Source: Stegostoma tigrinum
Taxonomy: Eukaryota
NCBI RefSeq assembly: GCF_030684315.1
Contig: NC_081388.1
Coordinates: 8,602,093-8,666,092, forward strand
Direction: 5' to 3'
Length of the DNA stretch: 64,000 bases
Shown here in pieces: positions 1 to 64,000 of this stretch. The notes beneath the pieces are model-generated. The model had not been told where the DNA came from, made no database searches, and saw nothing but the letters and a program-made list of their open reading frames with translations. The stretch's first letter is position 1. Each line of letters begins with the position of its first letter. Position numbers and translations under genes: made by a program.

Positions 1-480
1 TATGCATGCATATCTTATCCCTCAGAATCTTCTCAAGTAACTTGCCTATCACACATGTTACGCTTACAAGTGTATTATTCCCAGGTTTCTCTTCTCAGCA
101 CTTCCAATACTTCCAACACCTCCTCCACTGTGACATGGACTGTCACCAAGATATCACCACTAACTTCCCAAAGTTGCCATGTCTTCATGTCATTATTCAC
201 AGTTCACAAAGAGGCAAACTATTCATTGAGAACCTCATTCATCTCCTGCAGTTGCACACATGCATGTCCACTCTGGCCTTTCAGAGTTCCATTTCTCTCT
301 CCAGTTATTTTTATGGCTTTAACATACGGAAAGAATCTATTTGGATTCGCCCTGACATTTTCAGTCAAAGCTGACTCATGCCCCTCTTGAGACATCCTGA
401 TTTCCTTCTTCAGTTAAATCCTGTAACCCCTCTCTCCCTCCATGGCTTCCCTTGATCCCAGTTGCCTGTACCTGATCAAT
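1..480 (-). mobile_element. CR1-like LINE ORF2 fragment (part of the element at the end of each unit)
   Basis: Continuous with the RT-bearing fragment seen at 17850-18960; degenerate. Confidence 0.6.
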
Positions 481-799
481 CCCACCTTCTTTGTTCTGGT
501 AACAGCCTTTTTCATCCAGGGTTCCCTACTCCTGCTTCCATGCTGTATAACTCCATGACTCTGTGAGTCTGTGAAAGAGCAAAGTCAATAGCAATTTTTC
601 AGTTAAAAACTGACAGAGCCACAGATGCAGTGAATCAGAAACAAAAACGGAAATTTCTGGAAAAGTTCACCAGAGCTGGCAGCATCTGTGGAGAGAAATC
701 ATAGTTACTGTTTCGGGTAGAGAGACCCTTCCTCTGAACAATTCTTCAATAGTGGCCAAGGATATGAACATATTGTGTTCATCAATAGGACAAACATTG

Positions 800-1620
800 A
801 GGGCAAATTACGATGTTCAGAACAAGCTACTAGTAAACATAGAGAGCGAACTTACTTCAGTACAGATGTATCGGGGTTGGGGGAGTGGGTAAGTGTGAAG
901 ATTAGTTCACACTGATTGAAAGTGACCTGCACATGTTTCCATAGGAACCGCAACTAAATAAAGATGAAGGCACAGAACATGATTGTGAAGAGATTACCTG
1001 GTCCAAAAACCCAGAATCCTACACATTGTAAAAGAAAATAGCGGCTTCACCAGAGGAGTCCATGATGAAAATTCCACGAGATGAACGCTCCTGAGATGAT
1101 GTTATGGGGCAACTACCTTAGTTATCAGGAAAGAGTTCAGCTGCAAAAGAAATTCAGGAGATGAAGAGTTCTCCAGCTAAGGTGATAGAGTAACGCCCCT
1201 GGGGTAGCACGAGTTTCAACCTCAGCTCAAAACACCAGCATTTCCAGCAGTCTGCTGATGTAGAGCTTTAGAATAGGATCGAGGCCAATAGCCCTCAAGT
1301 CAAAGACCCACCAATCTGCCAAGTCTGAAGAGAATGAATTCAGGGAGAATTACAAAACCTCCAGGATGCCATGAAGTTGTAAAATCGGAGACTTGGGGGA
1401 ATGTGGGGTCACGGTTAATTTAATGGTCCATTCAAAATAGGGTAAGGTTTGATGGAGATGCTGTATGAAGTAATAATTTTGAACGGTTTAACTCTAGGAA
1501 GAGTTTTATCCAATCATGTCTTGAGGATCTTGGAACCCAAAGAGGTTAGAGATCTTAACCTAGATTTCCTCATCATTGTGGGAGCAACTTGGTAAATTAG
1601 GTGGTTTGTGATCACTGTCA
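800..1620 (+). mobile_element. Possible decayed LTR-retrotransposon integrase remnant, one per unit
   Basis: Purine-rich, stop-riddled region with an FNGPFKI reading at ~1418-1440 that resembles a GPY/F motif. Weak evidence. Confidence 0.3.
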
Positions 1621-2309
1621 CTCACTAAATGAGACCTTGTTTTTTCGAAAAAAATGGCCTCTTCTGGTTGAGACTCATTGGTCACTTTACTTGCCCACCA
1701 GCCGGGTTGGTCACGACGAGAGGCTCGTAGCAATGAAGTGCCCTGACCACAATCTGAGGGTGGTAGGCAGGGCAATGTATACAACATGTACCATTCGGCC
1801 CTGTTTACTTTCAGATTGGTGCAGTCGCAGGATCGCAGTAAAAACAGATTTGAAAGCGTCAAACTTTGAAAGAGTCATTGGAAGCAGCAAGGCAAAAGGA
1901 ATCAGGTGAGATATCCACATGCATAAGGCAATGCCAGGGTCCGTGCCAATAGATGAGATGAGCTGACGCACTGAGTGCCAACCCTGCTCTCAATCCCAAG
2001 TCCTCAGTGGCTGGTTACTGGTGCCATCTGATTCCATGAAAAGACATTGCTTTCTGTCTACATTCTTCCTGAAGCTTCCTCGTCTACCCAGAACAACAGC
2101 TGCCCGGCCAATGTCAAGCCAACAATGTAACAAAGAGCCAAGCTTACTGTGAGCCTTTCAGGGGTGGTGAAGGACTGGTTACTGTCCAAACCACCTTAAA
2201 GTAAATGCATTCTGATCGTGTCTCTTTTCAAGTTAAGAACGTGCTGAAAGCGATTCGCAGACACTGGGGTGAAAAGTTTGAGGAGATTGGTAGTTGGGGT
2301 TGTGAATGA

Positions 2310-2679
2310 GGTTGTAGACATGCTGGCCGAGCCGTTGGCTTTGGGTGCAAACATTTCATCGCCCTGGTAGATAACATCATCAGTGTGCCTCTTGGGAAGC
2401 GATGGTGTTCTGTCCCACTTGTTATTTATATGTCTCTGTTTGCTGGAATGGCTGGTATAGCTTCCAGTTCTGTTCCTCAGTGATTGAACTGTCCCAATGT
2501 ACAAACCACTGAGAAACAGAACCGGAGGGAATCCCAACCATTCCAGCAAGCTGAGACACAGAATTAACTAGTAGGACAGAACACCATCGCTTCCCCAGAG
2601 GTGCACTGACGACGTTACCGAGCAGGGTGATGAAACGTTTGCATCCAAACCTGTTCGCTCAGTGAGCACATCTCCAACC
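2310..2679. repeat. Imperfect inverted repeat (~170 bp arms, 24 bp loop), Penelope-type terminal repeat; also at ~11427-11796, 20901-21270, 29971-30340, 39080-39449
   Basis: gttctgttcctcagtg pairs with cactgagaaacagaac; gggaagcgatggtgttctgtcc pairs with ggacagaacaccatcgcttccc; tgcaaacatttcatcgccctg pairs with cagggtgatgaaacgtttgca. Confidence 0.85.
2601..2644 (+). ncRNA. Minimal type I hammerhead ribozyme-like motif, one per unit, with a second copy on the minus strand at 2345-2388
   Basis: GUGCA-CUGACGA-cGUUACC-gagcag-GGUGAU-GAAAC-GUU-UGCAU: the core boxes, stem II and stem I can all form. Activity is unknown. Confidence 0.6.
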
Positions 2680-3169
2680 TGAATGGGGTGAAATTTGAAG
2701 TGTGGCATCTGTGGTAATGTAGGGAGAAGCAGCAGGAATGCTGGGCACAGCAAGATCCCACAGAGGTGCTCACTGAGGGAAAATGAGTGATCAGAATGCC
2801 AGCCAACATTCACCTGTGCTTCTTTGAACACAGTGCCTGGAGTATATTTAATTTACAAGCAAATATGTGAGCGGAATGGTGATGAATTTAACTTTTTACC
2901 CAACATAACGTAGCTCCAACAGTGCTTGCCCACAAAGAGGGACTGAAGCATGGTGCGAGATCATAGAAAGTTAGCCCCAGTGGCTTCTCAGAGAAAGGAT
3001 GAACACAGTAATACTTCCACACACCCAAAACGAAGTGCTCAGAAGCACAGAACACCCTTTCGTTTTCCTCCAGACTGAAATGATTGAATAACACTGTCAG
3101 AGGACAAGCTCCAAGCTCAACAATATTGTTCTTTCTCTGCCTGTGATTGAATGCCGTGGGTAATTACGA

Positions 3170-3460
3170 TGGCCTTGTGGTATTATAGTTAAACCAGAGA
3201 CACAACAGGTGATTTTCTGAGGAGCTGGAGTCAAATCCCACCACAGCAGATGCTGGAATGCAAATTCATTGAAAATATCAGTGATTAGCCTGTCCAATAA
3301 TGACAGAGTCTGTTACCAATTGTTGGGAAGAAAACCCATCTCGTTCACCAACATCCTTTACAGAAGGAAACTGCCATCCTTGCCTGGACTACAGCTGCCC
3401 TCTGGACAATAAACACGCACCTAGCCTGTGCCACCCTCATCCATGAGGAAATTATTTTAA
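3170..3460 (+). mobile_element. Degenerate tRNA-derived SINE with an L2-like tail, one per unit
   Basis: ggccttgtggtatta (A box-like), ggagtcaaatccc (B box-like), aaaacccatct...gaaggaaactgccatcct and a caataaa tail. Confidence 0.5.
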
Positions 3461-4741
3461 AAATTGTTTGACAATGGTCGGTGCCCAGCTTGATGTAAAT
3501 CAAAACAGGATTACTGAAACGCTCCAGGGCACTGAACATCTTAGAACATTTGTGTGAAGATATTACAGGAGGAGAACACATTATAGAGAAACACACCACC
3601 ACAGTAATGGAGTTTTTAAACAGCTAAAGCTTACAAAGGTGCTTGGGCAGTAACTCTCAAATGTGTGTTGTGGCCATCTTTATAATTAGGTCATCAGCAA
3701 CTGGGTATAGTTTTTGGAGCAGAAGGGATGACACTTGATTATTGTTCACCTTCAGGCCCCAGTTGTTAACGAGGGCCTGAAGGCATCTTCAGGCCTCTAC
3801 TTTCCAAAACAGGGCCCCCATCCTGCACTCACATTCAGATGCGATTTGCAGAGTAGATGCTTGAGTCAGGACTATCTGATATCAGACCAAAACTCCCAGG
3901 AGAAAGCCCAGCAGAGAGAAAAAAACAAGCATTTAGAAGAGAAGGCGGATATTGAACTGCGATTTTTTTTTTAATATTAACAAGATAGAGCCAGAGCAAT
4001 GTGTGTCATGCACCAGTTTGATTTACCCCTTAGAATTCTCACCAGTATGTAAGCAGCCCAATTGTCCCCTTTAGTCCACACTGCTACCCCAAACATTCCA
4101 AAGAACAGCCCAACACCCTTTAACCCTACGTCCCACGCCGTCTCTGACCCAGAGTGCATATACATCCCTGTACTCTGGTACACTTTCCCCACGGAAAATT
4201 CACCAGGACTGGCGCACCTTTGGGCTGGAGGAAAACACCTGAGCACTAAACCCAGTCACAGGGTGAGTGTGCAACCACCCCACAGCAATTTGAACTCTGG
4301 TTCCTAGTGTGGCATTGCTGCCATGTAAACCACTAAGCCTCCATGCCACCCATGCCCAGCAGCCAGGTAAAGAGGCACAGATAGAGCATGGAGGGTCAGT
4401 CTGGTCCATGTTTCTTACTCTGAACACCCAGGCATCCTTATTCACAAAGGACCAGATGTAATGGGAGCAAACCCAGGACAGTTCACACCAGTGTTCCTAT
4501 TATAGAGGGAAATGGTCTGAACAGCGATCTCAGGCGTGGAAGTCCCATTTTGTGTTGCCAACAAGACCCTGTGGTCACTGCAAGCAGTGAAGCCTAAACA
4601 GTACATTCAATAAAAATAGATTCAGAAGGTTTTCTGGGGGTTCATAGCATAACCCCAGGGGTAGCGACTCATGATGATGCAGAGACAAACTAGACACAAG
4701 AAACAAGAGACAAGGAGTCACTGCTTTATTGGACTATTCCA

Positions 4742-7577
4742 TCAATAGTTGATTAGAGTTCGCTGGTGCTTCCTGTACAGGAACAAGGCCATCAACGAAG
4801 CAGAGATCAGGGAGACAGCTGTCACAGTCAGGGACAGCATCACAACCAGCTCAGACTGCACACCTACACAGCAAGGAGAAACCAATGGTTACTGAGGGAA
4901 ACTGGGACAAAGAGGCAAACTAGCAGTCAGACAACTCACCGCCTGGAGACATCTCCTGCATCCTTTGCTCAACCTCAGTCAGGGGCTCAGTCGCCAGGCT
5001 GGTCAGCTCAGGATCCAGAATGAGCAGGGGGCCAAGCGAGGCCTCACCCTCCCACTTCAATCCACCTTCACTCTCTGCAGGAGAGAACAGTAGTCAGGTT
5101 CAGGGAAAGCGTGAAAAGCCCCAGAGTCTCATGAGTCAGTGACCTACCAGCTTCAGCTCCAAGGTCTCTCCTTCCTCTGGAGGAGAAGATGATCTCCCCT
5201 GTGCTATCACAGTTCCCCACATGACAACAGGCACAAATGTCACTGGTCGATTCCTCCAGTGGGGTCCAGCTAAACAACAGAAACAGCCCATCAACCACAT
5301 GGAGCATCACCTCTCCCAACAACATCACGAAGGGACTGAGGTGGGGGAAGGGGAGGAAGAAAAAAACATGCTCACATCTGGTGCAGCTTCTGGAAAGTAC
5401 AAGCTTTGTTCCTGGAATTTGCCTGATCTACTGCAGCAACTTTCAGGTGACAAGTGATGAAAATCTGAGGGACACATTCAGCACAAGTCAGTCAGTGTTT
5501 AGTCACTCCCACCCAGTGGGGAGAAGCTAAGTCAGCAGTTTCCTCTTACCAAGGAGAGTTCATCTCCATAGAAGCGGAAGGCATCCAGGTCAAACCTGAG
5601 CTTGTCCGGCTCCCGCTGGTCTCTCAGCAACACAAAGGTTGAAAAGGAGTCCTCAGCTTTGCTGTCCATGAGGCAACTGCAGGTGAACAAAGGACCATGA
5701 AGTGAATGGAGTGAAGCCATTAAGATGGGAGCAGCTGGAGAAAGCAGAGATCTGCTTACCCATTGTAGTCAATGATGCTGTATCCGGGGCTGGAGTCCTT
5801 GTCTGGGCTCAGTGTAGCTACACAACGGTCAATGTACAGCTTCAGGGGCATGTGGTTGTCCATTGAAACAGATGCCTCAATGTGAATGAGGTCTCCCAGG
5901 GAGTAGACAGTGGAAGTGCGCTCTGTAAGCCAGTCACCTGAAGTACAAGAGGACAAGGGTTACAGATAGTAGGTGCAGCTCCCAGTGAGTGACACCAGGA
6001 GATCCCTCTCCAGCCAGCCCTCACATACCATTCATTAGACGCAGGGAGAATGACAGATGCCCTTCTCCAGACCTGGTGGAGCTGAATGGGATCCAGGTGG
6101 GCTTGATGGGGTCACTGCTCACATTGCCCGTCCTGGGGAGAGACAGTGCAGCCATTTTAGGCTAGTGTCAGGTGACAGCTGCAAATAATGTTTATAATCC
6201 AGTAAAGATTCTCACCTCAAATAACGACACACAATGGGAATGACAGCTCCATTGGTTCTCACAATGACAGACCCAGGATAGTTTGGTATGTGGGTCAGGT
6301 GGGTGGCGTAGATCAGGAAGTCTCCAGTCATCTGAAAGACAGCAGATGAAGGAATGGGGAACCAATTTGAAATGAAGGTTCTATGCAACATAACATCCTA
6401 TTTCCACAATTCCTCAGGGAGCTTGGCAGGCTCAGTGCCAGCCTCCTGTTGGCTCACAGAAAGAGTGAGACCAGTTTATTGGCAATACATCATGCTCAGG
6501 GGTTAATCATTTTGGACCAATTTGACAAGCTAGTGCATCAATAGATCAGACAGAACACTTACACTGGAAATACACTTTTGTTGAAACAGATGGATGGGTT
6601 TTGTAGAAAAAGACAGTAGAATCACTGAAGGAACAGGAACATAATCCTGATTCTCAGGCACTGCAGGCACATTTTGGTTTCCTCAGTCATCAATCCTCCA
6701 ATATTTGAGTATATCAGGAATACAAGACAAAACCAAAGTGACCTCAATAAAATTAGTTTCAGAAAACAGAACAGGAAATAATCTAATAGAGAAATAGAAC
6801 ACTTATCTCAAGCCCAGTTATTCCAAAGGCAAGGAAAGTGGGAATTTGGAGTCTTTCAAGAGCAAGGCAACTCTGAAAACTCTTGTTTAGGAGGAGTGAC
6901 ACCCCCACAGGACAGGGATCAGAGGAGCTGACTAAGGAGAAACAAGCCTCAAAACAGAGCTGGTCAAGTTCAGGAGAACCAGAAATAGTCTACAGGCCAT
7001 GGGGACAACAGAGGGGCTTGGGACTTAGAACCCCTTCAGCCACAGACTAATCCAGAAGAGACAATCTCAGTTTGAGAACAAGAGAAAGTAGACCCCGATA
7101 AACACAGAATTGGAGTCAGCATTACAGTAAGGATCACTTTAGACCAAGCTTCCAGCAAGTATGAAGGACTCCCATTACCTGCAATCTGCTGCCACACTCA
7201 TGCAGGCCATAGTCAAAGAGGACAGTGTGGTTCTCAGGGTAGACCCTGGTTGGCTGACAGCCTGCTGTCCCCAGGGTCAGGTCAGCAGCATTAATTAGGT
7301 GCCTGGTTCCAAATAAATCCAACTGGGCCCTGACCTGCAGCTTCTGCTCTCCACACTGCACCATCACAGTCTGCAGTGGGGACACACTCCCACCCTCAGA
7401 CATTCTGAAACTGGAACCAATGGGACCCCCATGAGGAGGGACTCTCTCAGGTACAGGGGTGGCTCTCACTCTTCTCCATGGATACCTCGGGCTCAGAAAC
7501 GGCTGCCAGGTTTCAGAGCAACAAACAGCTCCAAATAACAACACAGAGAACAAACCCATCACTACAAAATCCCCCAT
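4742..7577 (-). CDS. zp3: ZP3-like zona pellucida glycoprotein, copy 1 (type A), 9 coding exons, 463 aa, open frame
   Basis: Exons read by hand with GT-AG boundaries and consistent phases: 7577-7179, 6331-6216, 6132-6029, 5937-5760, 5676-5550, 5464-5376, 5269-5148, 5074-4940, 4863-4742 (1392 nt). The protein has a signal peptide ([20 protein letters not shown]), ZP-N ([10 protein letters not shown]...[11 protein letters not shown]), ZP-C ([11 protein letters not shown]...DRCVAT...IIDYNGCL...IFITCHLK...NKACTF), the ZP3 Cys cluster [10 protein letters not shown], furin site RGRR, an EHP-like LGPLLIL, a TM helix and an RK tail. AATAAA lies at 4730-4725. Confidence 0.95.
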
Positions 7578-7599
7578 GATCACAAACACCACAACCATC

Positions 7600-7810
7600 C
7601 CCTCCAGCCCCCACCCAGCTCCTTTTATACACACAACCTGCACTCACCTGACACCAATCAGACCAGAAGCAGCAACAATGAACCAATGATCCAGCCCCAA
7701 TCTCAGCAAATTCCACCAAAGTCTAAATCCATTGGCTTCTTACCAGAAGGGCCCATTTCATTTGGACCAATAGGAATGGCTGAGAGTTGCCATGCTGTCA
7801 CCTGACTGCA
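7600..7810 (-). promoter_or_regulatory. ZP3 copy 1 proximal promoter (TATA, CCAAT boxes, E-boxes)
   Basis: TATAAAA at 7629-7623, several CCAAT/ATTGG boxes between 7654 and 7771, and CAGGTG E-boxes at ~7645-7650 and 7799-7804. The block is conserved in all copies. Oocyte ZP promoters are known to use FIGLA-bound E-boxes; FIGLA binding here is inference. Confidence 0.7.
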
Positions 7811-7849
7811 TTCAGCTCCACAAGTTCTTCTGGTGATGGCGCCCTGAGT

Positions 7850-8285
7850 ACAGTAGAGTCAGAGAGTGTTCAGGCACAGAGAGATGTTCTTTGGCCCAGA
7901 ACAGTGCATGCTGATCAAAATGTCCATTGTGCTAATTTCATTTCCTCGCACCTTGCCCCTATCCTTCTAAACCTTTCCCATCCATGTATTTGTCCCAAGG
8001 CCTATTAAATGTTGTTAATGTAGCCCCTCAAGCACTTCTGTTGGCCCCTTACTACGTGTGCGCACCACCCTCAGGGTGACCAGGTTGCCATGTCTTTTCA
8101 AGACTCTCATGAGCTTATACACTTCGAGGATATCCCCTCTCAGTCTCCTATGCTGTAAAGAAATTAGCCTGAGCTTGTCCAACCTCTACCTCTATCTCAG
8201 GGTAACAGTTTCACCTTTTCCAATTTAATCGGATTGCTCCTGTAACAAGGTGAACAAAACTGAACACAATACTCCAAGCAGAGAT
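7850..8285 (-). mobile_element. Degenerate CR1-like 3' fragment upstream of the ZP3 promoter, present in every unit
   Basis: Similar to 47190-47735 (ctaaacctttcc...atccatgtatttgtcc). Confidence 0.55.
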
Positions 8286-8710
8286 ACAGAGCCTGTTTTG
8301 CAAAACATCTGCACTTGACTTGCAACAAACAACTTCCAACAAACTGGAGGAGAAGCACCTCATGTCCTGCCTCAGGAGCTGACGCCCAATGGCCTAAAGG
8401 TGGATTTTACCAGTTTTCAAAGCTTCCCTCCCGGTCCTCATCTCATCTCAGGCCTCCTTGGCCTGATACATCCTGTCCTAAGTTCTCTCCCATTTATCTG
8501 CGCCTCCCACCGCACTGACTAATCCCCATCAGCCCTCCCTGCACTCACCTACCACCATCCCACCTATCTTCCCCAGCACCACCCCTCCTCTGTATTAACT
8601 TCTGACCTCCCTTTCCCCTCTCCCATTTCTGAAGTTGGGTCCCAACCTGAAACGTCAACTTTCCAGCTCCTCTGAAGCTGCCTGGCCTGCTGTGTTCATC
8701 CACACTTTGC
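8285..8710 (+). mobile_element. Penelope-like 3' fragment; also at ~17385-17830, 26830-27250, 35945-36370, 41845-42290 and mirrored at ~59620-60060
   Basis: Homologous to the spacer element (aaactggaggagaagcacctcat...cccaatggcctaaa...gattttaccagttt), with the C-rich UTR and a hammerhead-like terminal motif. Confidence 0.7.
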
Positions 8711-8719
8711 CATGCTGAC

Positions 8720-9600
8720 ACTCCAAATAGGTCCTGCATATCTGCAACACAACTTCCCACCTAAGATGCTCATTGCCCTCATTGGCGAATCCCAGCGTGC
8801 CAAACGCCATCTTCACTGCCCTGTCTACCCGTCACTCTGCATTCAGAGAATTGTGCATCTGAACTCCAATATCCCTCTGTTCCACTACATTCCTTACAGC
8901 CCTACTGTTCATCCTGAAATTCCCACCTTGATCTCACTTTCCAAAATGCATCATGGAAACTTATCAAAGGCCTTACTGAAATCCATATGGAAAATGACTC
9001 CTGCCCTCCCATCAAACTTCCTGAACACTTCATCAAAGAACTCTGACAAATTTGTGAGGCATCATCTCTAATGCACGAAGACATGCTGACAACTCCTAAT
9101 CAAAACCTGTCTTTTCATATGCATGCATATCTTATCCCTCAGAATCTTCTCAAGTAACATGCCTATCACACATGTTACGCTTACAAGTGTATTATTCCCA
9201 TGTTTCTCTTCTCAGCACTTCCAATACTTCCAACACCTCCTCCACTGTGACATGGACTGTCACCAAGATATCACCACTAACTTCCCAAAGTTGCCATGTC
9301 TTCATGTCATTATTCACAGTTCACAAAGAGGCAAACTATTCATTGAGAACCTCATTCATCTCCTGCAGTTGCACACATGCATGTCCACTCTGGCCTTTCA
9401 GAGTTCCATTTCTCTCTCCAGTTATTTTTATGGCTTTAACATACGGAAAGAATCTATTTGGATTCGCCCTGACATTTTCAGTCAAAGCTGACTCATGCCC
9501 CTCTTGAGACATCCTGATTTCCTTCTTCAGTTAAATCCTGTAACCCCTCTCTCCCTCCATGGCTTCCCTTGATCCCAGTTGCCTGTACCTGATCAATCCC
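8720..9600 (-). mobile_element. CR1-like LINE ORF2 fragment with an internal ~350 bp deletion; also at ~27265-28140 and ~36380-37250
   Basis: Aligns to 17850-18960 but jumps from the aatgca at ~18068 to catggaaac at ~18426. Confidence 0.7.
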
Positions 9601-12600: not shown

Positions 12601-13831
12601 CATCCCAGAACATTTGTGTGAAGGTATTACAGGAGGAGAACACATTATAGAGAAACACACCACCCATCGTAATGAAGTGTTTAAACAGCTAAAGCTTACA
12701 AAGGTGCTTGGGCAGTAACTCTCAGATGTGTGTTGTGGCCATCTTTATAATTAGGTCATCAGCAACTGGGTATTGTTTTTGGAGCAGAAGGGATGACACT
12801 TGATTATTGTTCACCTTCAGGCCCCAGTTGTTAATGAGGGCCTGAAGTGTGGAGGAGTCTTAAGGCCTGTACATTCCAAAACAGGGCCCCCAACCTGCAT
12901 TCACATTCAGCTGCAATTTGTACAGTAGATGCTTGACTCAGTTGAGTCAGGACTATCTGACCTCAGACCAAAACCCCAGGGAAGAAAGCCCAGTGGAGAA
13001 AAAGACAAAACTAACATTTCGAAGAGAAGGTGGACATTGGACTGAGATTCTTTCTGAAGAATTCAATACGAGACAGAGCAATGTGTCTCAGGCACCAGTT
13101 TGATTTACCCCATAGAATTCTCACATTATGGAAGCAGTGCAATTGCCCCATTGAGTCCACACAGCTGCCCCAACCCCTCTGAAGAGGGGCCTGACCAGGC
13201 CCATGCCCTTTAACCCTACATCCCCCATATCTAACCCACAGGGCCTACATATCCCTGTACTCTGGTGCACTTTCCCCATGGCCAATTCACTGTGACTGGC
13301 ACCCCTTTGGGCTGTGAGGAAAAGATACCTGAGCACTCCCAGTCACAGCAATAATGTGCAACAACCAGCAGGCAGAATGTACTCAGGCTCCTGGTGTTGC
13401 GTTGCAACAGTGTAAGCCACTAAGCCTCGATGCCACCCCTGCCTAGCATCTAAGTAAAGAGGCAGGGATACAGCATGGAAGGCCAGTCTGATCAATGTTT
13501 CTTACGCTGAACACCCAGGTGTCCTTATTCGCAAAGGACCAGATGTAATTGGAGCAAACTCAGGACAGTTCACACCAGTGTTCCTATTATAGAGGGAATG
13601 GTGTGAATAGTGATCTCAGATGTGGAAGTCCCATTTTGTGTTGCCAACAAGACCCTGTAGTCACTGTACTGTTTAGGCATCACTGCTTGCATTCAGTAAA
13701 AATAGCAGCCAGAAAAGCTTTCTGGGGGTTCATAGCATAACCCCAGGGATAACAACTCACGTGAGGATGCAAAAACAAACTAGGTGCAAGAAACAAGAGA
13801 CAAGGAGTCACTCTTTTATTGGACTATTCCA

Positions 13832-16687: not shown

Positions 16688-16709
16688 GATCACAAACACT
16701 TCAACCATC

Positions 16710-16915
16710 CCCTACCCAGCTCCTTTTATACACACAACCTGCACTCACCTGACACCAATCAGACCAGAAGCAGCAACAATGAACCAATGATCCAGCCCCA
16801 ATCTCTGCAAATTCCACCAATGTCTACATCCATTGGCTTCTTACCAGAAGGGCCCATTTCATTTGGACCAATAGGAATGGCTGGGAGTTGCCATGCTGTC
16901 ACCTGACTGCATTCA
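16710..16915 (-). promoter_or_regulatory. ZP3 copy 2 proximal promoter
   Basis: TATAAAA at 16730-16724 followed by the same CCAAT/E-box block as copy 1. Confidence 0.65.
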
Positions 16916-48647: not shown

Positions 48648-48790
48648 CAAAAACTGACGTTGCTGGAAAGCTCAGCAAGCCTGGCAGCATCTGTGAAGGA
48701 AAAGAAACGCAGTTAACATTTAGGGTCTAGTGGCTGAGGATGGATGCTGCCAGACCTGCTGAGCTTTTCCAGAGACTTTGCTTTTGCTCC
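48648..48790. repeat. Older Penelope-type hairpin remnant; mirrored at ~53120-53260
   Basis: ctggaaagctcagcaagcctggcagcatc pairs with gatgctgccagacctgctgagcttttccag. Related to the sequence at 640-740. Confidence 0.6.
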
Positions 48791-50790: not shown

Positions 50791-50819
50791 ATTTATTATA
50801 GGCTTGGAAATTTAAGATT

Positions 50820-54300: not shown

Positions 54301-55929
54301 TAAGGGGAGGCTGGATAGACTCAGGGACATTTTCTCGCTGGAGCATAGGAAGTTGAAAGTTGACCTTATAGAGGTTTATAAAATCACGAGGGCCATAGAT
54401 GGGGTTAATGGAAGATCATATGGGGGATTTTAAAACTAGGGAATACATTGTTAAGGTGAGAAGAGACTCATTTAAAAATGACATGAGGTGCAAATCTTTT
54501 AAATAGATTCTCGTGTGGGATGAACTTCCAGAGGAAGGTGTGGATGTGGCACAATTATAACATTTAAAAGACATTTGGATAAGTACATGAATAGGGAAAG
54601 GTTTAGAGGGATATGGGCCAGGAGCAGGCTGGTGGGACTGGCTTAGTTTGGGATGATAGTCGGCATGAACTGGTTGGGCTGTAGGGTCTGTTTCTGTGCT
54701 GGATGACTATGACTCCATAAGATAAAATAATGGAAGCACTCCAGAAATGATTTGATTGGGAGGATTATGGATCTGCTCTGAAGAAATGACTAACATATGT
54801 TCTGATTTGTCACTCCTTGGTGGGATGTGGGCATTGCTGGTTGGACCAACATTTATTGCCCACCCTGAGTTGGTTTCAGGAAATTGGCAGTGAACTGCCC
54901 TCTTGAACTGCTGCAGTCAATGTGCAGTGTGTTGGCCCACAATACTGTTAGAGAGGAAATTCCAGCAGTTTGACCCAGTGACAATGAAATAACAGTGATA
55001 TAATTCTAAGTCAGGACGGTCAGAGGGAAGCTTTCAGGAGGTGATGTTCCCACCGTGTGCCCTTCATAATCTTAAATTATAATCTTGAAGCCAGCTTTAG
55101 ATTTTTCCTCAGATAAAAGAACAGATTTGTATTTATATTTATATTCTAACAGCAGTATACATACAATGCCAAGGACTTGACATACATATCCATCCACACT
55201 TGGACAAAAATTCAGTGACAGCAGCTCAATCTGTGAAATTCATCCTGGCTTGAATTGGTCAGGAGTCAGTTTTTAGCCTCGAGTCAGTGTGAGTTCTAAG
55301 TAGAGTTCAGTCTAAATCAGAAGCTGTGGCCTGGGCCTGAATCAGAGATTAGAGGTTAGGCATCGGCTCTATGTGGGCCTGATTTGTCACTCCTTGGTGG
55401 GATGTGGGCATTGCTGGTTGGACCAACATTTATTGCCCACAAACAAACATTCTGGGCCTAAGTGTGGGGGCAAGTAAGCCTGAATAACTGAAAGTCAGTT
55501 GCAGGCCTAAATTATCAGTCATCAGGCAGCCCTGGATTAGGAGATAGGTCTGAAACCAAAAAACAAACACTGCTGCCTTGCTGCACCGAGCACACGGATT
55601 TGATTCCAGCCTCGGGCGGCTGTCCGTGCGGAATTTGCACATTATCCCTGTGTCTGCGTGGGTTTCCTCCGGGTGCTCCGGCTTCCTCCCACAGCCAAAA
55701 GGTGTGCCGGTCAGGGTGAATTGGCCATGGGAAATTGCCCCACAGTGTGCAGAGATGTGCAGACAAGGTGGGTTACCCATGGGGGATCTAGGGTTACAGG
55801 GAGAGGGTGCGGGGATGGGTCTGGGTGGACTGCTCTTCAGAGGGTTTGGGACAGCCGTGTGGGCTCGATGGGCCAATTGGGAAACTTCTGCACTGTGGGA
55901 ATTCTATGGGATAAGTCAAACTGGTAAAT

Positions 55930-56250
55930 GGGGCGGCACAATGGCTCAGTGGTTAGCACTGCAGCCTCACAGCACCAGGGACCCGGGTTCGATCCCAGCC
56001 TCGGCTAACTGTCTGTGTGGAGTTTGTACATTCTCCCTGTGTCTGCTTGGGTTTTCTCCGGGTGCTCCGGTTTCCTCCTACAGTCCAAAGATGTGCAGGC
56101 TAGGTGGATTGGCCATGCTAAATTGCCCGTAGTGTTCAGGGATGTGTGGGTTATAGGGGGATGGGTCTGGGTGAGGTGCTTCAAGGGGCGGTGTGGACTT
56201 GTTGGGCCGAAGGGCCTGTTTCCACTCTGTAGGGAATCTAATCTAATCTA
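55930..56250 (+). mobile_element. tRNA-derived SINE (HE1/V-SINE-like), full length
   Basis: A box TGGCTCAGTGG, B box GGTTCGATCCC, V-domain-like gtgtggagtttgtacattctccctgtgtctgc...ggtttcctcc, (ATCTA)n tail and probable TSD taaatg. Confidence 0.85.
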
Positions 56251-58379
56251 AATGAGACACACTTCTCTGACTAGTCTTGTATACTTCAGAAAGAATCTCC
56301 AATACAAATGCCCACCCTCACTTCTAAATATTGCAGTTTGTTTTTTAACCGGCTTTCTCCTTCTGGGAGTTTTGAACCAGTCATGAGGCAGATAGTCCTG
56401 ACTCAAGCATCTACTGTACGAGTCCCATCTGAACGTGAACACAGGCTGGGGGCTCTGTTTTGGAATGTGTTGACATTAAGACTCATTCAGCCTTCAGTCC
56501 CTCACTAACACTGAGGTTTGTTGAAGATGGGACAATGAAGGGTTCCTATGCCTTCCATGCCTCAGCAAAAATATTTTTATTGAATTCAAATTCCACCATC
56601 TGCCATGGTGGTATTCAAACCTGGGTGCCCAGAACATTACCTGGGTCTCTGGATTAACAGTCCAGCTACAATACCACGAGGCCATCAGAAATACCTGCTG
56701 CATTCAATCACAAATAGGAAAACAACAAAACAATTGAGCTTGTCTTCTTCTGACAATGTTATTCAATAATTTAAGTCTGGAGGAAAAAGAGACGTGTTCT
56801 GTACATCTCTGTGAGCACTTGGTTTTGGGAATGTGGAAATATTAATGTGTTTATCATTTCCCTGAAAACTCAGGCCAATGGGTATGATTTTCTTCGAGCG
56901 GACTCCATGCTGAAGTGCCTCTCCAGTTTTTTTTGAGGAATCTGCTGGAAAAGCACTGTTGGACCTCTCAGTTTTGTTGCATACAAAGTTAAATCCACCA
57001 CCATTGCACTCACATAATTGTTTGTAAATTAAGTATACGCCAGGCACTGCATGTCAAATCATTGCTGGCATTCTGATCACTCATTTTCCCCTCGGTGAGA
57101 ATCGCCAAAGGTGAGCAACTTGTGGGAGTTTGCTGTGCTCAAATTTCCTGCTGCTTCTCCCAACATTACCACAGGCGACACACTTCAAAGTTCACCTCAC
57201 TGAAGACGCAGACATGCTCGTTGAGCCGATGGGCTTGGTCGCAAACGTTTAGTCACCCTGTGAAGTAACATTGTCAGTGCGCCTCTGGTGAAGGGTCAGT
57301 GTTCTGTCCCATTTGTTATTTACATGCCTCGGTTTGCTGGGGCGGTTGGGGTTAGTTCCAGTTCTGTTTCTCAGTGAGTGAACTGTACACAATATACAAA
57401 CCACTCAGCAAACTACATATGAGCTCCACCAAGCTTTACATGCCACAAACCCAGATCTCCTCAAGTCTCCGATTTTACAACTTCATGGCATCCTGGAGGT
57501 TTTGTAATTCTCCCTGAATTCATTCTCTTCAGAATTGGCAGATTGGTGGGTCTTTGACTTGAGGGCTATTGGCCTTGATCCTATTCTAAAGCTCAACATC
57601 AGCAGACTGCTTGAAATGCTGGTGTTTTGAGCTGAGGTTGAAACTCGTGCTACCCCAGGGGCGCTACTCTATCACGTTAGCTGGAGAACTCTTCATCTCC
57701 TGAATTTCTTTTGCAGCTGAACTCTTTCCTGATAACTAAGGTAGTTGCCCCATAACATCATCTCAGGAGCGTTCATCTCGTGGAATTTTCATCATGGACT
57801 CCTCTGGTGAAGCCGATATTTTCTCTTACAATGTGTAGGATTCTGGGTTTTTGGACCAGGTAATCTCTTCACAATCATGTTCTGTGCCTTCATCTTTATT
57901 TAGTTGCGGTTCCTATGGAAACATGTGCAGGTCACTTTCAATCAGTGTGAACTAATCTTTACACTTACCCACTCCCCCAACCCCGACACATCTGTACTGA
58001 AGTAAGTCCGCTCTCTATGTTAACTAGTAGCTTGTTCTGAACATCTTAATTTGCCCTCAATGTTTGTCCTATTGATGAACACAATATGTTCATATCCTTG
58101 GTCACTGTTGAAGAATTGTTCAGAGGAAGGGTCTCTCTACCCGAAACAGTAACTGTGATTTCTCTCCACAGATGCTGCCAGCTCTGGTGAGCTTTTCCAG
58201 AAATTTCTGTTTTTGATTCTGATTCACTGCATCAGTGGCTCTGTCAGTTTTTAACTGAAAAATTGTTATTGACTTTGCTCTTTCACAGACTGTCAGAGTC
58301 ATGGAGTTATACAGCATGGAAGCAGGAGTAGGGAACCCTGGATGAAAAAGGCTGTTACCAGAACAAAGAAGGTGGGATT

Positions 58380-59600
58380 GATCAGGTACAGGCAACTGGG
58401 ATCAAGGGAAGCCATGGAGGTAGAGAGGGGTTACAGGATTTAACTGAAGAAGGAAATCAGGATGTCTCAAGAGGGGCATGAGTCAGCTTTGACTGAAAAT
58501 GTCAGGGCGAATCCAAATAGATTCTTTCCGTATATTAAAGCCATAAAAATAACTGGAGAGAGAATAGGAACTCTGAATGGCCAGAGTGGACATGCATGTG
58601 TGGAACTGCCGGAGATGAATGAGGTTCTCAATGAATAGTTTGCCTCTTTGTGAGCTGTGGATAATGACATGAAGACATGGCGACTTTGGGAAGTCAGTGG
58701 TGATATCTTGGTGACAGTCCATGTCACAGTGGAGGAGGTGTTGGAAGTATTGGAAGTGCTGAGAAGAGAAATCTGGGAATTATAGGCTTGTAAGCATAGC
58801 ATGTGTGATAGGCATGTTACTTGAGAAGATTCTGAGGGATAAGATATGCATGCATATGAAAAGACAGGGTTTGATTAGGAGTAGTCAGTGCGGCTTTGTG
58901 CATTAGAGATGATGCCAAACAAAGTTGTCAGAGTTCTTTGATGAAATGTTCAGGAAGTGTGATGGCAGCACAGGAGGCGTCGTCCGTATGGATTTCAGTG
59001 AGGCCTTTGATAAGTTTCCATGTTTTAGGCAGCTCTGGAAGGTTAGTTCGAATAGAATCTAGTAAACGAGATACATAATTGGCTTGATGGGTGGAAGCAG
59101 AGAGTAATAGTGAAAGGATGCTTGTCGGAGTGGAGGTCTGTGACTCGTGGTGTGCCTCAGGGGTCAGTGCTGGGCCTATTGCTGTTTGTTATCTATATCA
59201 ATGCTGTAGATGAGGGTGTACAAGGCATGATTAGTCAGTTGGCAGATGACACTAAAATAGATAGTATTGTGGATAGTGAGGAAAGTTTTCAGAAATTGCA
59301 ACATGATGTTGATCAGCTGTGGAAGTGGGCCGATAAATGGCAAATGGATTTGATTCTAGATAAGTGTGAGGTGTTGCATTGTGGAAAGCGAAATCAAGGT
59401 GGGAATTTCAGGGTGAACGGTACGGCTGTAAGGAGTGTAGCGGAACAGAGGGACATTGGAGTTCAGGTGCACAATTCTCTGACAGCTGAGTGACGGCTAG
59501 ACAGGGCAGTGAAGGTGGGGTTTGACAAACTGGCTTTCGTCTATGTGTGCATTGAGTATCGAAGGTGGGAAGTTGTGTTGCAGATGAGGACGACACATTT
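58380..59600 (+). mobile_element. CR1-like LINE RT fragment, right palindrome arm
   Basis: ORF 59110-59493, mirror of 42415-42798. Confidence 0.9.
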
Positions 59601-60534
59601 GGCGTATCAGCCTAACAAAGTGTGGATGAACACAGCAGGCCAGGCAGCATGTGGGGAGCAGGAAAGTTGATGTTTCAGGTCGGGACTCTTCTTCAGAAAT
59701 TGGAGAAGGGGAAGGAAGCTCAGAAGTTAATAGAAAGACGAGGGGTTGAACTGGGGAAGGTAGATGGGATGGTGACAGGTGAGTGCAGGTAGGGGTGGTG
59801 GGGATTAGTCAGTGAGGTGGGAGGTGCAGATAGGTGGGAGAGAAGGTGGACAGGTTGTATCAGGTCAAGGAGGTAGGGATGAGAGGTAGGGTTGATCATG
59901 AGATGAGGCCGGGCAAGGGGAGATTTTAAAACTGGTAAAATCCACGTTTAGGCCATTGGGCTGTCAGCTCCTGAGGCAGGACATGAGGTGCTTCTCGTCC
60001 AGTTTGTGGCAAGTAGTTTGTTGCAAGTCAAGTGCAGATCCTCCACAAAACAGGCTCTGTATCTTCTCTTGCAGTATTGTGTTCAGATTTGGTCACCTTG
60101 TTACAGGAACAATTCTATTAAATTGGAAAAGATGAAACAGTTGCCCTGAGATAGAGGTAGAGGTTGGACAAGCTCAGGCTAATTTCTTTAGAGTGTAGGA
60201 GACTGAGAGGGGATCTCCTCGAAGTGTATAAGCTCATGAGAGTCTTGTAAATACATGGAAACCTGGTCACCCTGAGAGTGGTACACACATGGAGTAAGGG
60301 GCCAACAGAAGTGCTTGAGGGGCTACATTAACAACATTTAATAGGCATTGGGACAAATACACGGATGGGAAAGGTTTAGAAGGACAGGGTCCTGGTGCAA
60401 GGAAATGATTTTAGCACGGATAGAAATTTTGGTCAGCGTGCATCATTCCGGGCCAAAGGACCTGTCTCTCAGCCAGAAGACTCTGTGACTCTATTGTACT
60501 CAGGGGGCCATCACCATGAGAACCTGTGGAACTG

Positions 60535-60750
60535 AATGCAGTCAGGTGACAGCATGGCAACTCCCCGCCATTCCTATTGGTCCAAATGAAATGGGCCCTC
60601 CTGGTAAGAAGCCAATGGATGTAGACATTGGTGGAATTTGCAGAGATTGGGGCTGGATCATTGGTTCATTGTTGCTGCTTCTGGTCTGATTGGTGTCAGG
60701 TGAGTGCAGGTTGTGTGTATAAAAGGAGCTGGGTGGGGGCTGGAGGGGAT
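60535..60750 (+). promoter_or_regulatory. Promoter of the inverted ZP3 pseudogene
   Basis: CAGGTG at 60543-60548, ATTGG boxes, and TATAAAA at 60718-60724. Confidence 0.6.
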
Positions 60751-60769
60751 GGTTGAAGTGTTTGTGATC

Positions 60770-63630
60770 ATGGGGGATTTTGTAGTGAGGGGTTTGTTCC
60801 CTGTGTTGTTAGTTAGTTAGTTGGTTGGTGCTGTTTGTTTCTTGGAAACTCAGCAACTGAACCTGAGGTATCCATGGAGAAGAGTGAGAGCCACCCCTGT
60901 ACCTGAGTGAGTTTCTCCTCATGGGGGTCCCATTGGTTCCAGTTTCAGAATGTCTGAGGGTGGGAGTGTGTCCCCACTGCAGACTGTGATGGTGCAGTGT
61001 GGAGAGCAGAAGCTGCTGGTCAGGGCCCAGTTGGATTTATTTGGAACCAGGCACCTAATTAATGCTGCTGACCTGACCCTGGGAACAGTAGGCTGTCAGC
61101 CAACCAGGGTCTACCCTGAGAACCACACTGTCCTCTTTGACTATGGCCTGCATGAGTGTGGCAGCAGATTGCAGGTAATGGGAGTCCTCCATAGTTGCGG
61201 GAAGCTTGGTCTATACAGTGTTCCTTGCTGTAATGCTGGCTCCAATGCTGTGGTTATTGGGGTGTACTTTCTCTTGTTCTCAAGCTGAGATTGTCTCTTC
61301 TAGATTTGACTGTGGCTGAAGTGGTTCTGTGGGCCCCCAAACCCCTCTGTTGTCCCTATGGCATTGAGATTATTTCTAGTTCTCCTGGATATGATTAGCT
61401 TTCAATGTTTGAGTCTTGTTTCTCCTTAGTCAGCTCTACTGTCATTCTCATCCCTTGAGGGTGACACTGCTAAAAACATTACCATTGAGCTGCCTTGTTC
61501 TTGAAGGGCTCCAATTTCCCACTTTCCTTGCCTTTGGAACAACTGGGCTTGTGGGATATGTGCTCTGTTTCTGTATTATTAGATTATCCCCTGGTCTGTT
61601 TACTGAAACTGACTTTATTGAATCACTTTGCTGAATAGTTTAGCCTTGTCCTCGATAACCTCAAACATTAGGTTTGCTGATGACTGAGGAAACCAAAATG
61701 TCTGAGAGAATCGGGGTCACGTTACTGTTCCCTCAGTGATTTCTATTGCTAGTTTCTACAAAAACCATCCATCTGTTTCAACAACTGTGTATTTCCACTG
61801 TAAATGCATTCCCTATCTGATCATTGCTGATCAATTGATTGATGCCCTACCTTGTCAAATTCATCCAAAATGATGAACCTCTGAGCTATGATGTATTGCC
61901 TGTAAAACTGGTGTCACTGCTTGTGAGCAAACAAGAGGCTGGCACTGAGCCTGTCAACTCCCTACGTAACTGTGGGAATGGGATGATGTCCTTGTGTTGC
62001 ATAGAACCTTCATTTCAAATTGGTTCCCCATTCCTTCATCTGTTGTCTTTCAGATGACTGGAGACTTCTTGATCTACACCACCCACCTGACCCACATCCC
62101 AAACTATCCTGGGTCTGTCATTGTGAGAACCAATGGAGCTGTCATTCCCATTGTGTCGTTATTTGAGGTGAGCCTTTGCTAGATTGTCAACATCATCTGT
62201 AGCTGTCACCTGACACTAGCTTAAAATGGCTGCACTGTCTCTCCCCAGGACAGGCAATGTGAGCAGTGACCCCATCAATCCCACAGGATCCCATTCAGCT
62301 CCACCAGGTCTAGAGAAGGGCACTTGTCATTCTCCCTGCGTCTAATGAATGGTATGTGAGGGCTGGCTAGGGAGGGATCGCCTGGTGTCACTCACTGGGA
62401 GCTGCACCTACTATCTGTAACCCTTGTCCTCTTGTACTTCAGGTGACTGGCTTAAAGAGCACACTTCCACTGTCTACTCCCTGGGAGACCTCATTCACAT
62501 TGAGGCGTCTGTTTCAATGGACAACCACTTGCCCCTGAAGCTGTACATTGACCGCTGTGTAGCTACACTGAGCCCAGGCAAGGACTCCAGCCCCAGATAC
62601 AGCATCATTGACTACAATGGGTAAGGAGCTCTCTGCTTTCTCCAGCTGCTTCCATCTCAATGGCTTCACTCCGTTCACTTCATGGCCCTTTGTTCACCTG
62701 CAGTTGCCTCGTAGACAGCAAAGCTGAGGACTCCTTTTCAACCTTTGTGTTGCCGAGAGACCAGCGGGAGCCAGACAAGCTCAGGTTTGACCTGGATGCC
62801 TTCCGCTTCTATGGAGATGAACAATCCTTGGTAAGAGGAAGCTGCTGATTAGTCACTCCCACCCAGTGGGGAGAAGCCAAACTGACTTGTGCTGCATGTG
62901 TCCCTCAGATATTCATCACCTGTCACCTGAAAGTTGCTGCAGTAGATCAGGGAGATTCCAGGAACAAAGCTTGTACTTTCCAGAAGCTGCACAAGATGTG
63001 AATGGTTTCTGACCTACCCTCTGCCCCCACTCACCGTCCCTTAGTGATGTTGTTGGTGAGGTGATGCCCCACGTGGTTCATGAGCTTTTTCTCCTGTTTA
63101 GCTGGACCCCACTAGAGGAATCAAGCAGTGACATTTGTGCCTGTTGCCATGTGGGGAACTGTGGTAGCACACGGGACATCATCCTTCCCTTCAGAGGAAG
63201 GAGAGACCTTGGAGCTGAAGCTGGTAAGTCACTGAACCACGAGATGTTCGGGCTATACACCCCTTCCTGAACCTAACCGTACTGCTCTCTCTCCTGCAGA
63301 GTGAAGCTGGATTGAAGTGGGAGGGTGAGTCCTCAGTTGGCCCCCTGCTCATTCTGGATCCTGAGCTGACCAGCCTGGCGACTGAGCCCCTGACTGAGGA
63401 TGAGCAAAGGATGCAGGAGATGTCTCCAGGCGGTGAGTTGCCTGACTGCTAGTTTGCCTCTTTGTCCCAGTTTCCATCAGTAACCATTGGTTTCTCCTTG
63501 CTGTGTAGGTGTGCAGTCTGAGCTGGTTGTGATGCTGTCCCTGACAGTGACAGCTGTCTCCCTGATCTCTGCTTCGTTGATGGCCTTGATCCTGTACAGG
63601 AAGCACCAGCGAACTCCACTCAACTATTGA
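60770..63630 (+). pseudogene. zp3: ZP3-like pseudogene, type B, inverted orientation
   Basis: ATG at 60770; in-frame TAG at 60818-60820 inside a TTAG/TTGG expansion; in-frame TGA at 60908-60910; 2-nt deletion in exon 2 (~62155); 1-nt deletion in exon 3 (~62285); 2-nt deletion at the start of exon 8 (~63300); terminal TGA 63628-63630; AATAAA 63642-63647. Confidence 0.92.
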
Positions 63631-64000
63631 TGGAATAGTCCAATAAAGCAGTGACTCCTTGTCTCTTGTTTCTTGCACCTAGTTTGTTTCTGCATCCTCA
63701 TGCGAGTTGATATCCCTGGGGTTATGCTATGAACCCCCAGAAACCTTTTCTGGCTGTTATTTTTACTGAATGCAAGCAGTGATGCCTAAACAGTACAGTG
63801 ACTACAGGGTCTTGTTGGCAACACAAAATGGGACTTCCACATCTGAGATCAATATTCACACCATTCCCTCTATAATAGGAACACTGGTGTGAACTGTCCT
63901 GAGTTTGCTCCAATTACATCGGTCCTTTGCGAATCAGGACACCTGGGTGTTCAGAGTAAGAAACGTTGATCAGACTGGCCCTCCATGCTGTATCCCTGCC

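Follow-up and report, generated by a model that had tools for sequence, protein, structure and literature searches.

The zebra shark locus analysed here raises the question of how a cluster of egg-coat genes comes to run head-to-tail and then turn back on itself, and whether the inverted repeat at the turning point protects the genes. The window, by which we mean the whole stretch of 64,000 nt under analysis (Stegostoma tigrinum, assembly GCF_030684315.1, NC_081388.1, forward-strand positions 8,602,093–8,666,092), holds five ZP3-like genes with nine exons each and one deleted position. These six positions lie on ~9.1-kb units; A, B and D are open, C and F are broken and E is deleted (Table 1). 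Exon mapping and self-comparison bear out the arrangement proposed in an earlier note on this DNA, six ZP3 positions running head-to-tail and then inverted around ~50950 (the centre lies at 50954). They also bear out its higher-order tandem structure, as 27662–40328 matches 1–12675 at 98.35% identity, offset by three units. As a control, the longest self-match in five shuffled windows was 44 bp; Tandem Repeats Finder returned a single trivial 12-bp unit from the window, and an Rfam scan gave 0 matches. Open, broken and deleted copies stand side by side, in support of birth-and-death turnover. The window belongs to a large ZP3 egg-coat gene cluster, probably an autosomal one, and we consider it fairly likely that this cluster was shaped by tandem duplication, exon conversion, duplication of a trimer, an older fold-back and later conversion between arms. 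A giant palindrome that is sex-linked and protects its genes is probably not the right picture.

Table 1 Features of the 64,000-nt window, in order of position
Feature	Position	Strand	Basis or remark
Head-to-tail array, ~9.1-kb units, three-unit higher-order repeat C-A-B	1..40328		self-comparison
ZP3-like gene A, type A, 9 exons, open, 463 aa	4742..7577	-	463/463 identical to XP_059495973.1
ZP3-like gene B, type B, 9 exons, open, 461 aa	13832..16687	-	exon mapping
Promoter of B, representative of all copies	16729..16905	-	motif scan
ZP3-like gene C, type C, 1-nt exon-1 frameshift near 25837	23314..26121	-	corresponds to XP_059495974.1
ZP3-like gene D, type A, open, 464 aa	32402..35237	-	464/464 identical to XP_059495975.1
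Position E, remnant of a promoter with distal E-box and 5 CCAAT boxes	41237..41365	-	self-comparison and motif scan
Left palindrome arm, 9,361 bp	41237..50597		B-type upstream region as far as 44458, followed by ~6.1 kb repeat-rich non-array DNA
Arm-difference patch, 19 mismatches in 856 bp, 2.2%	42083..42938		arm alignment
Inner tract, almost identical between the arms: 2 mismatches, 1 indel over 7,659 bp	42939..50597		arm alignment
Decayed LINE reverse-transcriptase fragment	50106..50792	+	Pfam RVT_1 E=3e-4, below curated cut-off
Spacer, 712 bp	50598..51309		CR1-type LINE continuation and piece of another interspersed repeat abutting right arm
Right palindrome arm	51310..60671		self-comparison
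Inverted B-type unit: upstream region and gene F	57450..64000	+	97.0% identical to 13461-19998; continues past window end
ZP3-like gene F, type B, inverted pseudogene	60770..63630	+	exon mapping, lesion inspection

The ZP-N and ZP-C domains (Pfam PF23344 and PF00100, above cut-off in the RefSeq protein models that correspond to A, C and D) are the sole folded region, and the best solved match is 3nk3 'Zona pellucida 3' (E=1.6e-97), with ZP3 in three of three PDB matches. The cysteines of A (residues 75, 107, 128, 168, 245, 267, 313, 330, 350, 352, 353 and 358) comprise the eight of the ZP module and a C-x-C-C...C four-cysteine cluster, which we take to be ZP3-specific. All three open copies, whose splice junctions are GT-AG, carry the furin site RGRR at 367–370 and hydropathy peaks at the N-terminus and at ~residue 429, from which signal peptide and transmembrane helix were judged. 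Domains, structure match, cysteine pattern and RefSeq matches together confirm the ZP3 identity, and the identity of A and D to Stegostoma tigrinum proteins pins the cartilaginous fish suspected earlier to the zebra shark. The intact copies are thus predicted to encode a membrane-anchored ZP3 precursor with signal peptide, ZP-N, ZP-C, furin site and transmembrane helix. In established ZP biology, such precursors are secreted and cleaved and then polymerise to form the vitelline envelope.

Clusters of 5–6 CCAAT boxes occur at all six ZP3 positions and nowhere else in the window. In the promoter of B, an E-box CAGGTG at about -220 is accompanied by 5–6 CCAAT boxes, a second E-box and TATAAAA, and the CCAAT layout is presumably linked to the CCAAT promoter of zebrafish zp3, on which our literature search turned up no publication; in D, the TATA box is altered to TATCAAA. 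The E-box/CCAAT/TATA promoter and the retained anchor suggest that the intact copies would be expressed in the oocyte, and the cluster may have a dosage role for very large eggs. The dosage step is weakened because teleost ZP copy number is not significantly correlated with chorion thickness (rho 0.286, p 0.49; PMC13704971).

Gene B is matched exactly by none of the 21 Stegostoma proteins in our comparison, a set that lacks 4 of the 19 main-cluster members. RefSeq treats C as protein-coding, with another N-terminus that skirts the 1-nt deletion, and C shows 0 differences from XP_059495974.1 over 235 compared columns; on our own reading of the sequence, and against this annotation, C is a probable pseudogene. 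Position E has lost the TATA box, every exon and the polyA site in a ~3.35-kb deletion (B-equivalent 13422–16776), which fused the promoter to the downstream flank at 41237–41240 with an exact microhomology of about 1 bp. In F, we found in-frame stops at 60818 and 60908, a 2-nt deletion in exon 2, a 1-nt deletion in exon 3 and an exon-8 acceptor short of 2 nt. The earlier tally of three open, two pseudogenised and one deleted position therefore stands for A, B, D, E and F and is qualified for C, frameshifted yet coding in RefSeq.

We compared exon and intron divergence within and between unit types. In five of five between-type pairs, synonymous exon sites, possibly somewhat constrained, differ by 4.4–5.7% and introns by 15.5–19.4% (Fisher p 5e-7 to 6e-11); the difference is absent in both within-type pairs. 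Small introns yield conflicting groupings of the copies, and site patterns are clustered in three of three runs tests (0 of 10,000 permutations as low), which leave clustered mutation out of the model. Because exon synonymous divergence is 4–6% and that of introns 15–19%, the comparison suggests exon-centred concerted evolution between unit types. Zebra shark and whale shark differ by a genome-wide dS of 6–11%; set against introns 15–19% apart, the unit types may be older than the split between these species.

The array extends well beyond the window. At least 29 zp3-like RefSeq accessions lie on the same 25,358,296-bp zebra shark sequence, along which unit types A, B and C recur. Such clusters are not confined to this locus, as multiple zp3-like models are also present in 11 other sharks; the earlier note pointed out neither these nor the exon-intron contrast. 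The models mostly group by species: a tree of 114 rows shows 21 species-label changes compared with a shuffled mean of 83.5 (0 of 200 shuffles as low). This tree comes from a quick search; 56 of its 104 branches have weak support, isoforms are included, and its rows derive from 90%-identity clusters that favour near-copies, with 4 of 117 proteins dropped for short coverage. The shark copies stand in RefSeq as anonymous 'ZP3-like' models. Tentatively, as a possibility short of a probability, sharks would carry a large old ZP3 array in which exons are homogenised per species, a few protein types keep to a set higher-order arrangement, and conversion is driven locally by inverted blocks.

The two arms of the inverted repeat are 99.74% identical, and the near-perfect palindrome occupies 19.4 kb, or 30% of the window. 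LINE homology, which we take to be of CR1 type, runs unbroken past the end of the left arm at 50597 and on into the spacer, and past 60671 the right side resembles unit B at just 97.0%. Exon mapping detected no ZP3 exons between 41237 and 60671, and no coding sequence is paired across the arms; two core ORFs were scanned, one with a weak LINE match and the other without a match. The genes flanking this core are deleted (E) or dead (F). To call the structure a giant palindrome was an overstatement, as the 99.7% arms span 9.4 kb and a fold-back of the whole array is invisible within the window.

The arm differences are strongly uneven. The patch contains 19 of the 22 mismatches, whereas the minimum span in 100,000 uniform simulations was 2915 bp; outside it, 41240–42082 holds 1 difference in 843 bp. 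To one side of the patch, 19 differences from B are common to E and F and 1 is private; to the other, the figures are 32 and 1, whereas inside it 5 are shared and 19 private. This patchy divergence shows non-allelic exchange, and because of it conversion probably acted on an older inversion. An older inversion is also indicated because putative mirror partners further out differ at 2–8 of 235 residues and F carries five lesions. The RefSeq models after F follow in reversed order of unit types, which indirectly supports a multi-gene inverted block; order and strand beyond the window are taken from RefSeq accession order alone, where strands are not visible. The left arm cannot be proved to be the original copy, since an arm crossover flipping the spacer would swap the junctions. 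The notion of a conversion-maintained amplicon thus keeps one half, probable arm-to-arm exchange, and loses the other, gene protection, as the core lacks ZP3 coding sequence. We propose that the palindrome is a by-product of array turnover and not a gene-protecting device.

The history that we favour begins with old tandem duplications, which produced the three unit types and left their mark in the present intron divergence. Non-allelic conversion and unequal crossing-over would have kept exons and some intergenic blocks alike, as the mosaic patterns suggest. The C-A-B trimer was duplicated, as the 98% identity three units apart shows. A fold-back duplication would then have copied part of the array in inverted orientation from a break in the LINE ~6 kb past the last unit; the junction is seen in the window, the extent is extrapolated. 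Arm-to-arm conversion may later have rewritten the inner 7.7 kb, and the deletion of E and decay of F would have left the core gene-free.

Much of this could also follow from a recent fold-back, a few hundred thousand years old at shark rates, with arms alike by descent and no sustained conversion between them. The 856-bp patch would be a single tract from a third B-type unit, and the outer arms would have been reshuffled by unequal exchange. One tract then suffices rather than two, given how alike the arms are on its outer side; the inner junction is clean, with the LINE continuous on one side only, and the changes shared by E and F (13 AT-to-GC vs 8 GC-to-AT) show no significant GC bias. Such an event must nevertheless fit the deletion of E into the short time after the duplication, and the putative outer mirror genes are not near-identical; we judge it rather unlikely. 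The 3 differences across the inner 7.66 kb could instead reflect HiFi error correction, and identical RefSeq proteins that alternate elsewhere on the chromosome might be over-expansion. Against an assembly artefact in the core or in part of the copy number stand ~20-kb HiFi inserts, hifiasm, Bionano and manual curation (inferred to describe this assembly), copies that differ by 1.5–10% with their own lesions, insertions and junctions, and the recurrence of multiple copies across independent shark assemblies, and we hold it to be very unlikely.

Conversion between arms that preserves germline genes on a sex chromosome, as on the mammalian X and Y, would agree with arm length and identity (9.4 kb and 99.74%, compared with human X criteria of >8 kb and >95%; PMC8327919) and with the 25.36-Mb sequence, which falls within the 16.4–28.8 Mb reported for non-stingray X chromosomes. 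Yet the arms pair no ZP3 coding sequence, the genes next to them have been lost (E) or inactivated (F), and published sizes of the zebra shark X are ~17 Mb and ~20 Mb; the length of this X in the present assembly was not found in the supplements of PMC13047888 (2 picture files excluded), PMC13100897 and PMC12318234. Shark X chromosomes share gene content, yet the sequences that bear related zp3-like models measure 38.7 Mb in C. plagiosum, 43.1 Mb in H. ocellatum, 226 Mb in S. canicula and 29.8 Mb in H. perlo. Because these four exceed the reported X range, sex linkage is unlikely on sequence-length comparisons across sharks. The whale shark model sits on 20.9 Mb, whereas the X of that species has an assembled length of ~12 Mb (the assembly being deduced from its accession series); the 19.5-Mb horn shark sequence is uninformative, and no amplicons were detected on the bamboo shark Y. 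As a whole, the sex-linked ampliconic reading is very unlikely. Compatible with our structural history is diversifying selection, on egg-coat properties or sperm interaction, as the force that keeps the three types instead of dosage; the fixed C-A-B order would keep the variant mix. A and B differ at 20 of 235 residues, dN/dS is 0.81–0.86 overall (0.86 for A vs B) and 1.17 in ZP-C, and all three types recur along the cluster. The ZP-C ratio rests on 3 synonymous changes, the ratios are not clearly different from 1 and do not indicate strong purifying selection, conversion depresses dS and inflates the ratio, and the C copy of the window is broken; we rate this explanation as unlikely. As a test of positive selection, dN/dS is too noisy to decide.

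The analysis extends ZP3 amplification, described so far in teleosts, to sharks, where it is apparently widespread. In genomes that are otherwise slow to change, the copies preserve conversion tracts, the higher-order repeat and the inversion down to single bases. This makes the cluster suitable for studying why egg-coat genes multiply; a new mechanism is not demonstrated. The zebra shark fertilises internally, and a clade-wide array would, if true, be an undescribed case of exon-centred concerted evolution affecting the main egg-coat gene of vertebrates with internal fertilisation, with dosage and sperm–egg coevolution testable across egg-laying and live-bearing sharks.

Like vertebrate ZP3 of solved structure (3nk3 and 8bqu, which we take to be chicken and fish ZP3), the shark copies combine ZP-N, ZP-C, cysteines, furin site and transmembrane helix; they are distinguished by nine exons, a proline-rich N-terminal stretch and multiple copies. 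Our literature search found no ZP3 clusters or concerted ZP evolution described in sharks; the supplement of PMC6262864, which possibly holds chondrichthyan counts, lies outside its coverage. Zebrafish has tandem ZP genes, and ZP3 is divided into subfamilies ZP3.1, 3.2 and 3.3 (PMC6262864). Channel and blue catfish have 20–22 ZP3 copies (12–44 across tabulated teleosts; PMC13704971), which are oocyte-specific and lie on both strands as tandem and segmental duplications, interspersed with pseudogenes; they are a precedent for amplified ZP3 with ovary-specific expression. The shark cluster resembles these in its many tandem copies on one chromosome, mixed orientation and pseudogenes, and differs in its host. 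In the passages of PMC13704971 covered here, the catfish descriptions include no higher-order repeat, near-perfect inverted core or exon-versus-intron conversion signal, and 'palindrom' and 'invert' have 0 occurrences in the paper. With mammalian X and Y palindromes (PMC8327919), the inverted repeat shares arms >8 kb, >99% identity, a short spacer and a deletion near the centre. Unlike these, 21 of 26 of which on the human X hold an intact gene in their arms, the shark arms and spacer hold none; the arms are at the small end of the 8–140 kb range, and the locus is probably autosomal and of an egg-coat rather than a testis family. A near-perfect inverted repeat over the intergenic DNA of a divergent gene pair is also described for Caenorhabditis, where, in the part of PMC1803023 available, such repeats are thought to be actively maintained and their cross-species conservation is demonstrated; in the shark, one partner gene is deleted. 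Mosaic divergence, paralogues that group by species and interspersed pseudogenes place the shark copies alongside tandem families under concerted and birth-and-death evolution, as far as the partial sources on these describe them.

The window holds a real, well-resolved ZP3 tandem array of the zebra shark. By self-comparison, units of ~9.1 kb run head-to-tail from position 1 to ~44458, and a higher-order repeat, 1-12675 against 27662-40328, recurs three units apart with a 98.35% match; the longest self-hit in five shuffled windows was 44 bp. A nine-exon model derived from the copy at 16687 mapped to five positions across the whole window, and CCAAT clusters coincide with all six ZP3 positions (A to F) and with exactly those. 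The earlier note had counted six positions, three open, two broken (C, F) and one deleted (E), and this count holds. Gene structures, lesions and junctions were observed directly, as were the higher-order repeat and the mosaicism described below.

ZP3-like gene positions in the window and their coding state
Feature	Position	Strand	State
ZP3-like gene A	7577-4742	-	open
ZP3-like gene B	16687-13832	-	open
ZP3-like gene C	26121-23314	-	exon 1 with 1-nt deletion
ZP3-like gene D	35237-32402	-	open
Position E	junction 41237-41240	-	downstream flank fused to promoter; ~3.35 kb lost
ZP3-like gene F	60770-63630	+	two stops, two small deletions, damaged acceptor

In open copy D the TATA box (~35286) reads TATCAAA instead of TATAAAA and may be weaker. 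Unit E alone carries a MITE-like hairpin element of ~150 bp (40328-40488); its terminal inverted repeats measure 59 nt (95%), and it shows a target duplication of ~13 bp. At 17955-18392, 42415-42852 and 59056-59493 lies a piece of LINE reverse transcriptase (RVT_1 in Pfam, E=9e-11); it is listed as a 145-codon ORF in B-type units only and is shorter in the A and C types.

Searched against longer proteins, exon 1 of A gave 70 matches, 61 of them elasmobranch ZP3-like (table counted by eye), together with seven bird proteins (six named ZP3 or ZP3-like, one unnamed) and one match bearing a Salmonella label. Pfam found ZP-N and ZP-C, 3/3 PDB matches are ZP3, and the cysteines, the RGRR site and the hydrophobic ends are present in all three open copies (A, B, D). 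Along their full length A and D equal XP_059495973.1 and XP_059495975.1 of Stegostoma tigrinum, for which RefSeq sets the start seven codons upstream of the ATG chosen here, near the TATA box, and C matches XP_059495974.1 in 235/235 compared columns. At least 29 zp3-like accessions lie on a single sequence of 25,358,296 bp, with 4 of the 19 main-cluster members unlisted. Beyond the window on this sequence, XP_059495879/81/83/85 are mutually identical, likewise 880/82/84/86, and the two sets alternate: either a separate zp3-like subgroup forms another higher-order repeat with two units, or the assembly is over-expanded here. Two full-length shark-like ZP3 proteins on contigs of 1,415 bp that carry the label Salmonella enterica, MBS2599508.1 (P0008) and MCY5961867.1 (P0184), show 85-88% identity to horn shark and catshark copies and are probably contaminating spliced cDNA.

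The inverted repeat pairs 41237-50597 with 51310-60671 at 99.74% identity across a 712-bp spacer (self-comparison), which confirms the inversion centre proposed in the earlier note and gives a palindrome extent of 19.4 kb. Mapping of the nine-exon model across the window found no ZP3 exon within the palindrome; its partners are the promoter relic of E and the promoter of the dead F, and the near-perfect core of the inversion carries no gene. At the inner junction, a LINE is uninterrupted where the left arm meets the spacer; on the right it is truncated, as expected of a fold-back. Each arm also contains an exact 62-bp direct repeat, 577 bp apart (46468-46529 and 47045-47106; mirror 55379-55440 and 54802-54863).

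A patch at 42083-42938 holds 19 of the 22 within-arm mismatches, while in 100,000 simulations of uniform placement the tightest span holding 19/22 was 2915 bp; the inner 7,659 bp of the arms hold 2 mismatches and 1 indel. On the two flanks of the patch, the differences from B common to E and F number 19 and 32, with one private per flank, as against 5 shared and 19 private inside it, a contrast from which we conclude that non-allelic exchange occurred. This exchange would have been either arm-to-arm on an old inversion or a single incoming tract on a young one. On a scale of whale-zebra shark dS of 0.061-0.111 per ~50 My, rough ages come to 0.2-0.3 My (core), 10-18 My (patch), 7-13 My (A-D split) and 80-150 My (split of introns between unit types), the last probably an overestimate if the region mutates fast.

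Past F, the RefSeq models run C, (gap), A, C, B, A, C, with order and strand taken from accession numbers alone. The last five reverse the cycle of the left array (C-A-B), consistent with an inverted block of several genes. Mirror partners show 4, 2, 7, 4 and 8 differences per 235 residues, and over the compared residues 978 equals 981 and 979 equals 972 (XP_059495 series).

The unit types comprise A/D (1.6% apart), C, and B/E/F (2.5%), and divergence along the unit is strongly mosaic. Between types, synonymous sites differ by 4.4-5.7% and introns by 15.5-19.4% in 5/5 tested pairs (Fisher p 5e-7 to 6e-11), whereas within types this exon-intron gap is absent in both tested pairs (p 0.08, 0.51). 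Intron 1 is plainly homologous, and the ~60 bp adjoining exon 2 are identical between A and B. Groupings of the small introns conflict: B and C pair in intron 2, A and B in intron 3, and A and C in introns 5 and 7. Site patterns are clustered in 3/3 runs tests (0/10,000 permutations as low). Values of dN/dS between copies (0.35-0.86) are too noisy to show selection. The block 10525-12000 and its equivalents in each unit diverge by 0.4-3.3% over all types, compared with up to 20% in nearby flanks, and may be an exchange hotspot. This block contains a 370-bp imperfect hairpin. It also contains an ORF of 104 aa, included by RefSeq through splicing in XP_059495971 and 978, models that are probably annotation artefacts.

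A quick-search protein tree with weakly supported inner branches was built from 113 of the 117 proteins fetched together with B (114 rows). Paralogues cluster in it mostly by species, with 21 label changes against a shuffled mean of 83.5; isoforms among the rows, and the drawing of rows from clusters at 90% identity, bias this result towards species grouping. Multiple models occur in 11 other sharks: R. typus, C. plagiosum, C. punctatum, H. ocellatum, H. francisci, S. canicula, S. torazame, M. asterias, C. maximus, H. perlo and P. japonicus. In Mustelus asterias, identical zp3-like proteins on several unplaced scaffolds suggest another large, poorly assembled higher-order array. In our view the most valuable lead is not the palindrome but what appears to be concerted evolution of ZP3, centred on exons, throughout the sharks.

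The earlier note raised possible sex linkage of the cluster. Its 25.36-Mb sequence falls inside the non-stingray X range of 16.4-28.8 Mb given in a 14-genome study, while the zebra shark X is reported at ~17 Mb and elsewhere at ~20 Mb. Shark X chromosomes are described as homologous. In four species of that study, related though not necessarily syntenic models lie on sequences of 29.8, 38.7, 43.1 and 226 Mb, longer than the X range; the horn shark sequence (19.5 Mb) is uninformative. On these length comparisons we consider X-linkage very improbable.

ZP3 precursors are cleaved at a furin site and then polymerise into the egg coat, and FIGLA acts on ZP genes via E-boxes. The copies would presumably be expressed in oocytes and may be beneficial through gene dosage; how events in the array history were ordered is likewise a proposal. 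Against the dosage step, the authors of the catfish study report that chorion thickness is not significantly associated with copy number (PMC13704971). Searches that covered few subscription journals and part of the supplementary material found no published description of a shark ZP3 cluster, and 'zona' had 0 matches in the main text of the shark genome, sex-chromosome and methylation papers examined. Papers drawn on were PMC13704971, PMC6262864, 10.1101/2025.02.26.637739, 10.1101/2022.10.17.512540, PMC8455134, PMC1845163, PMC11406177, PMC8227731, PMC8327919, PMC13047888, PMC13100897, PMC12318234 and PMC1803023.

Compared with human X palindromes as characterised in PMC8327919, the zebra shark core has the defining length and identity but lacks the gene content. 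Teleosts carry up to 44 ZP3 copies, and the shark array may be set beside that of catfish, where 20-22 ZP3 copies lie mostly in tandem, on both strands and with pseudogenes among them (PMC13704971).
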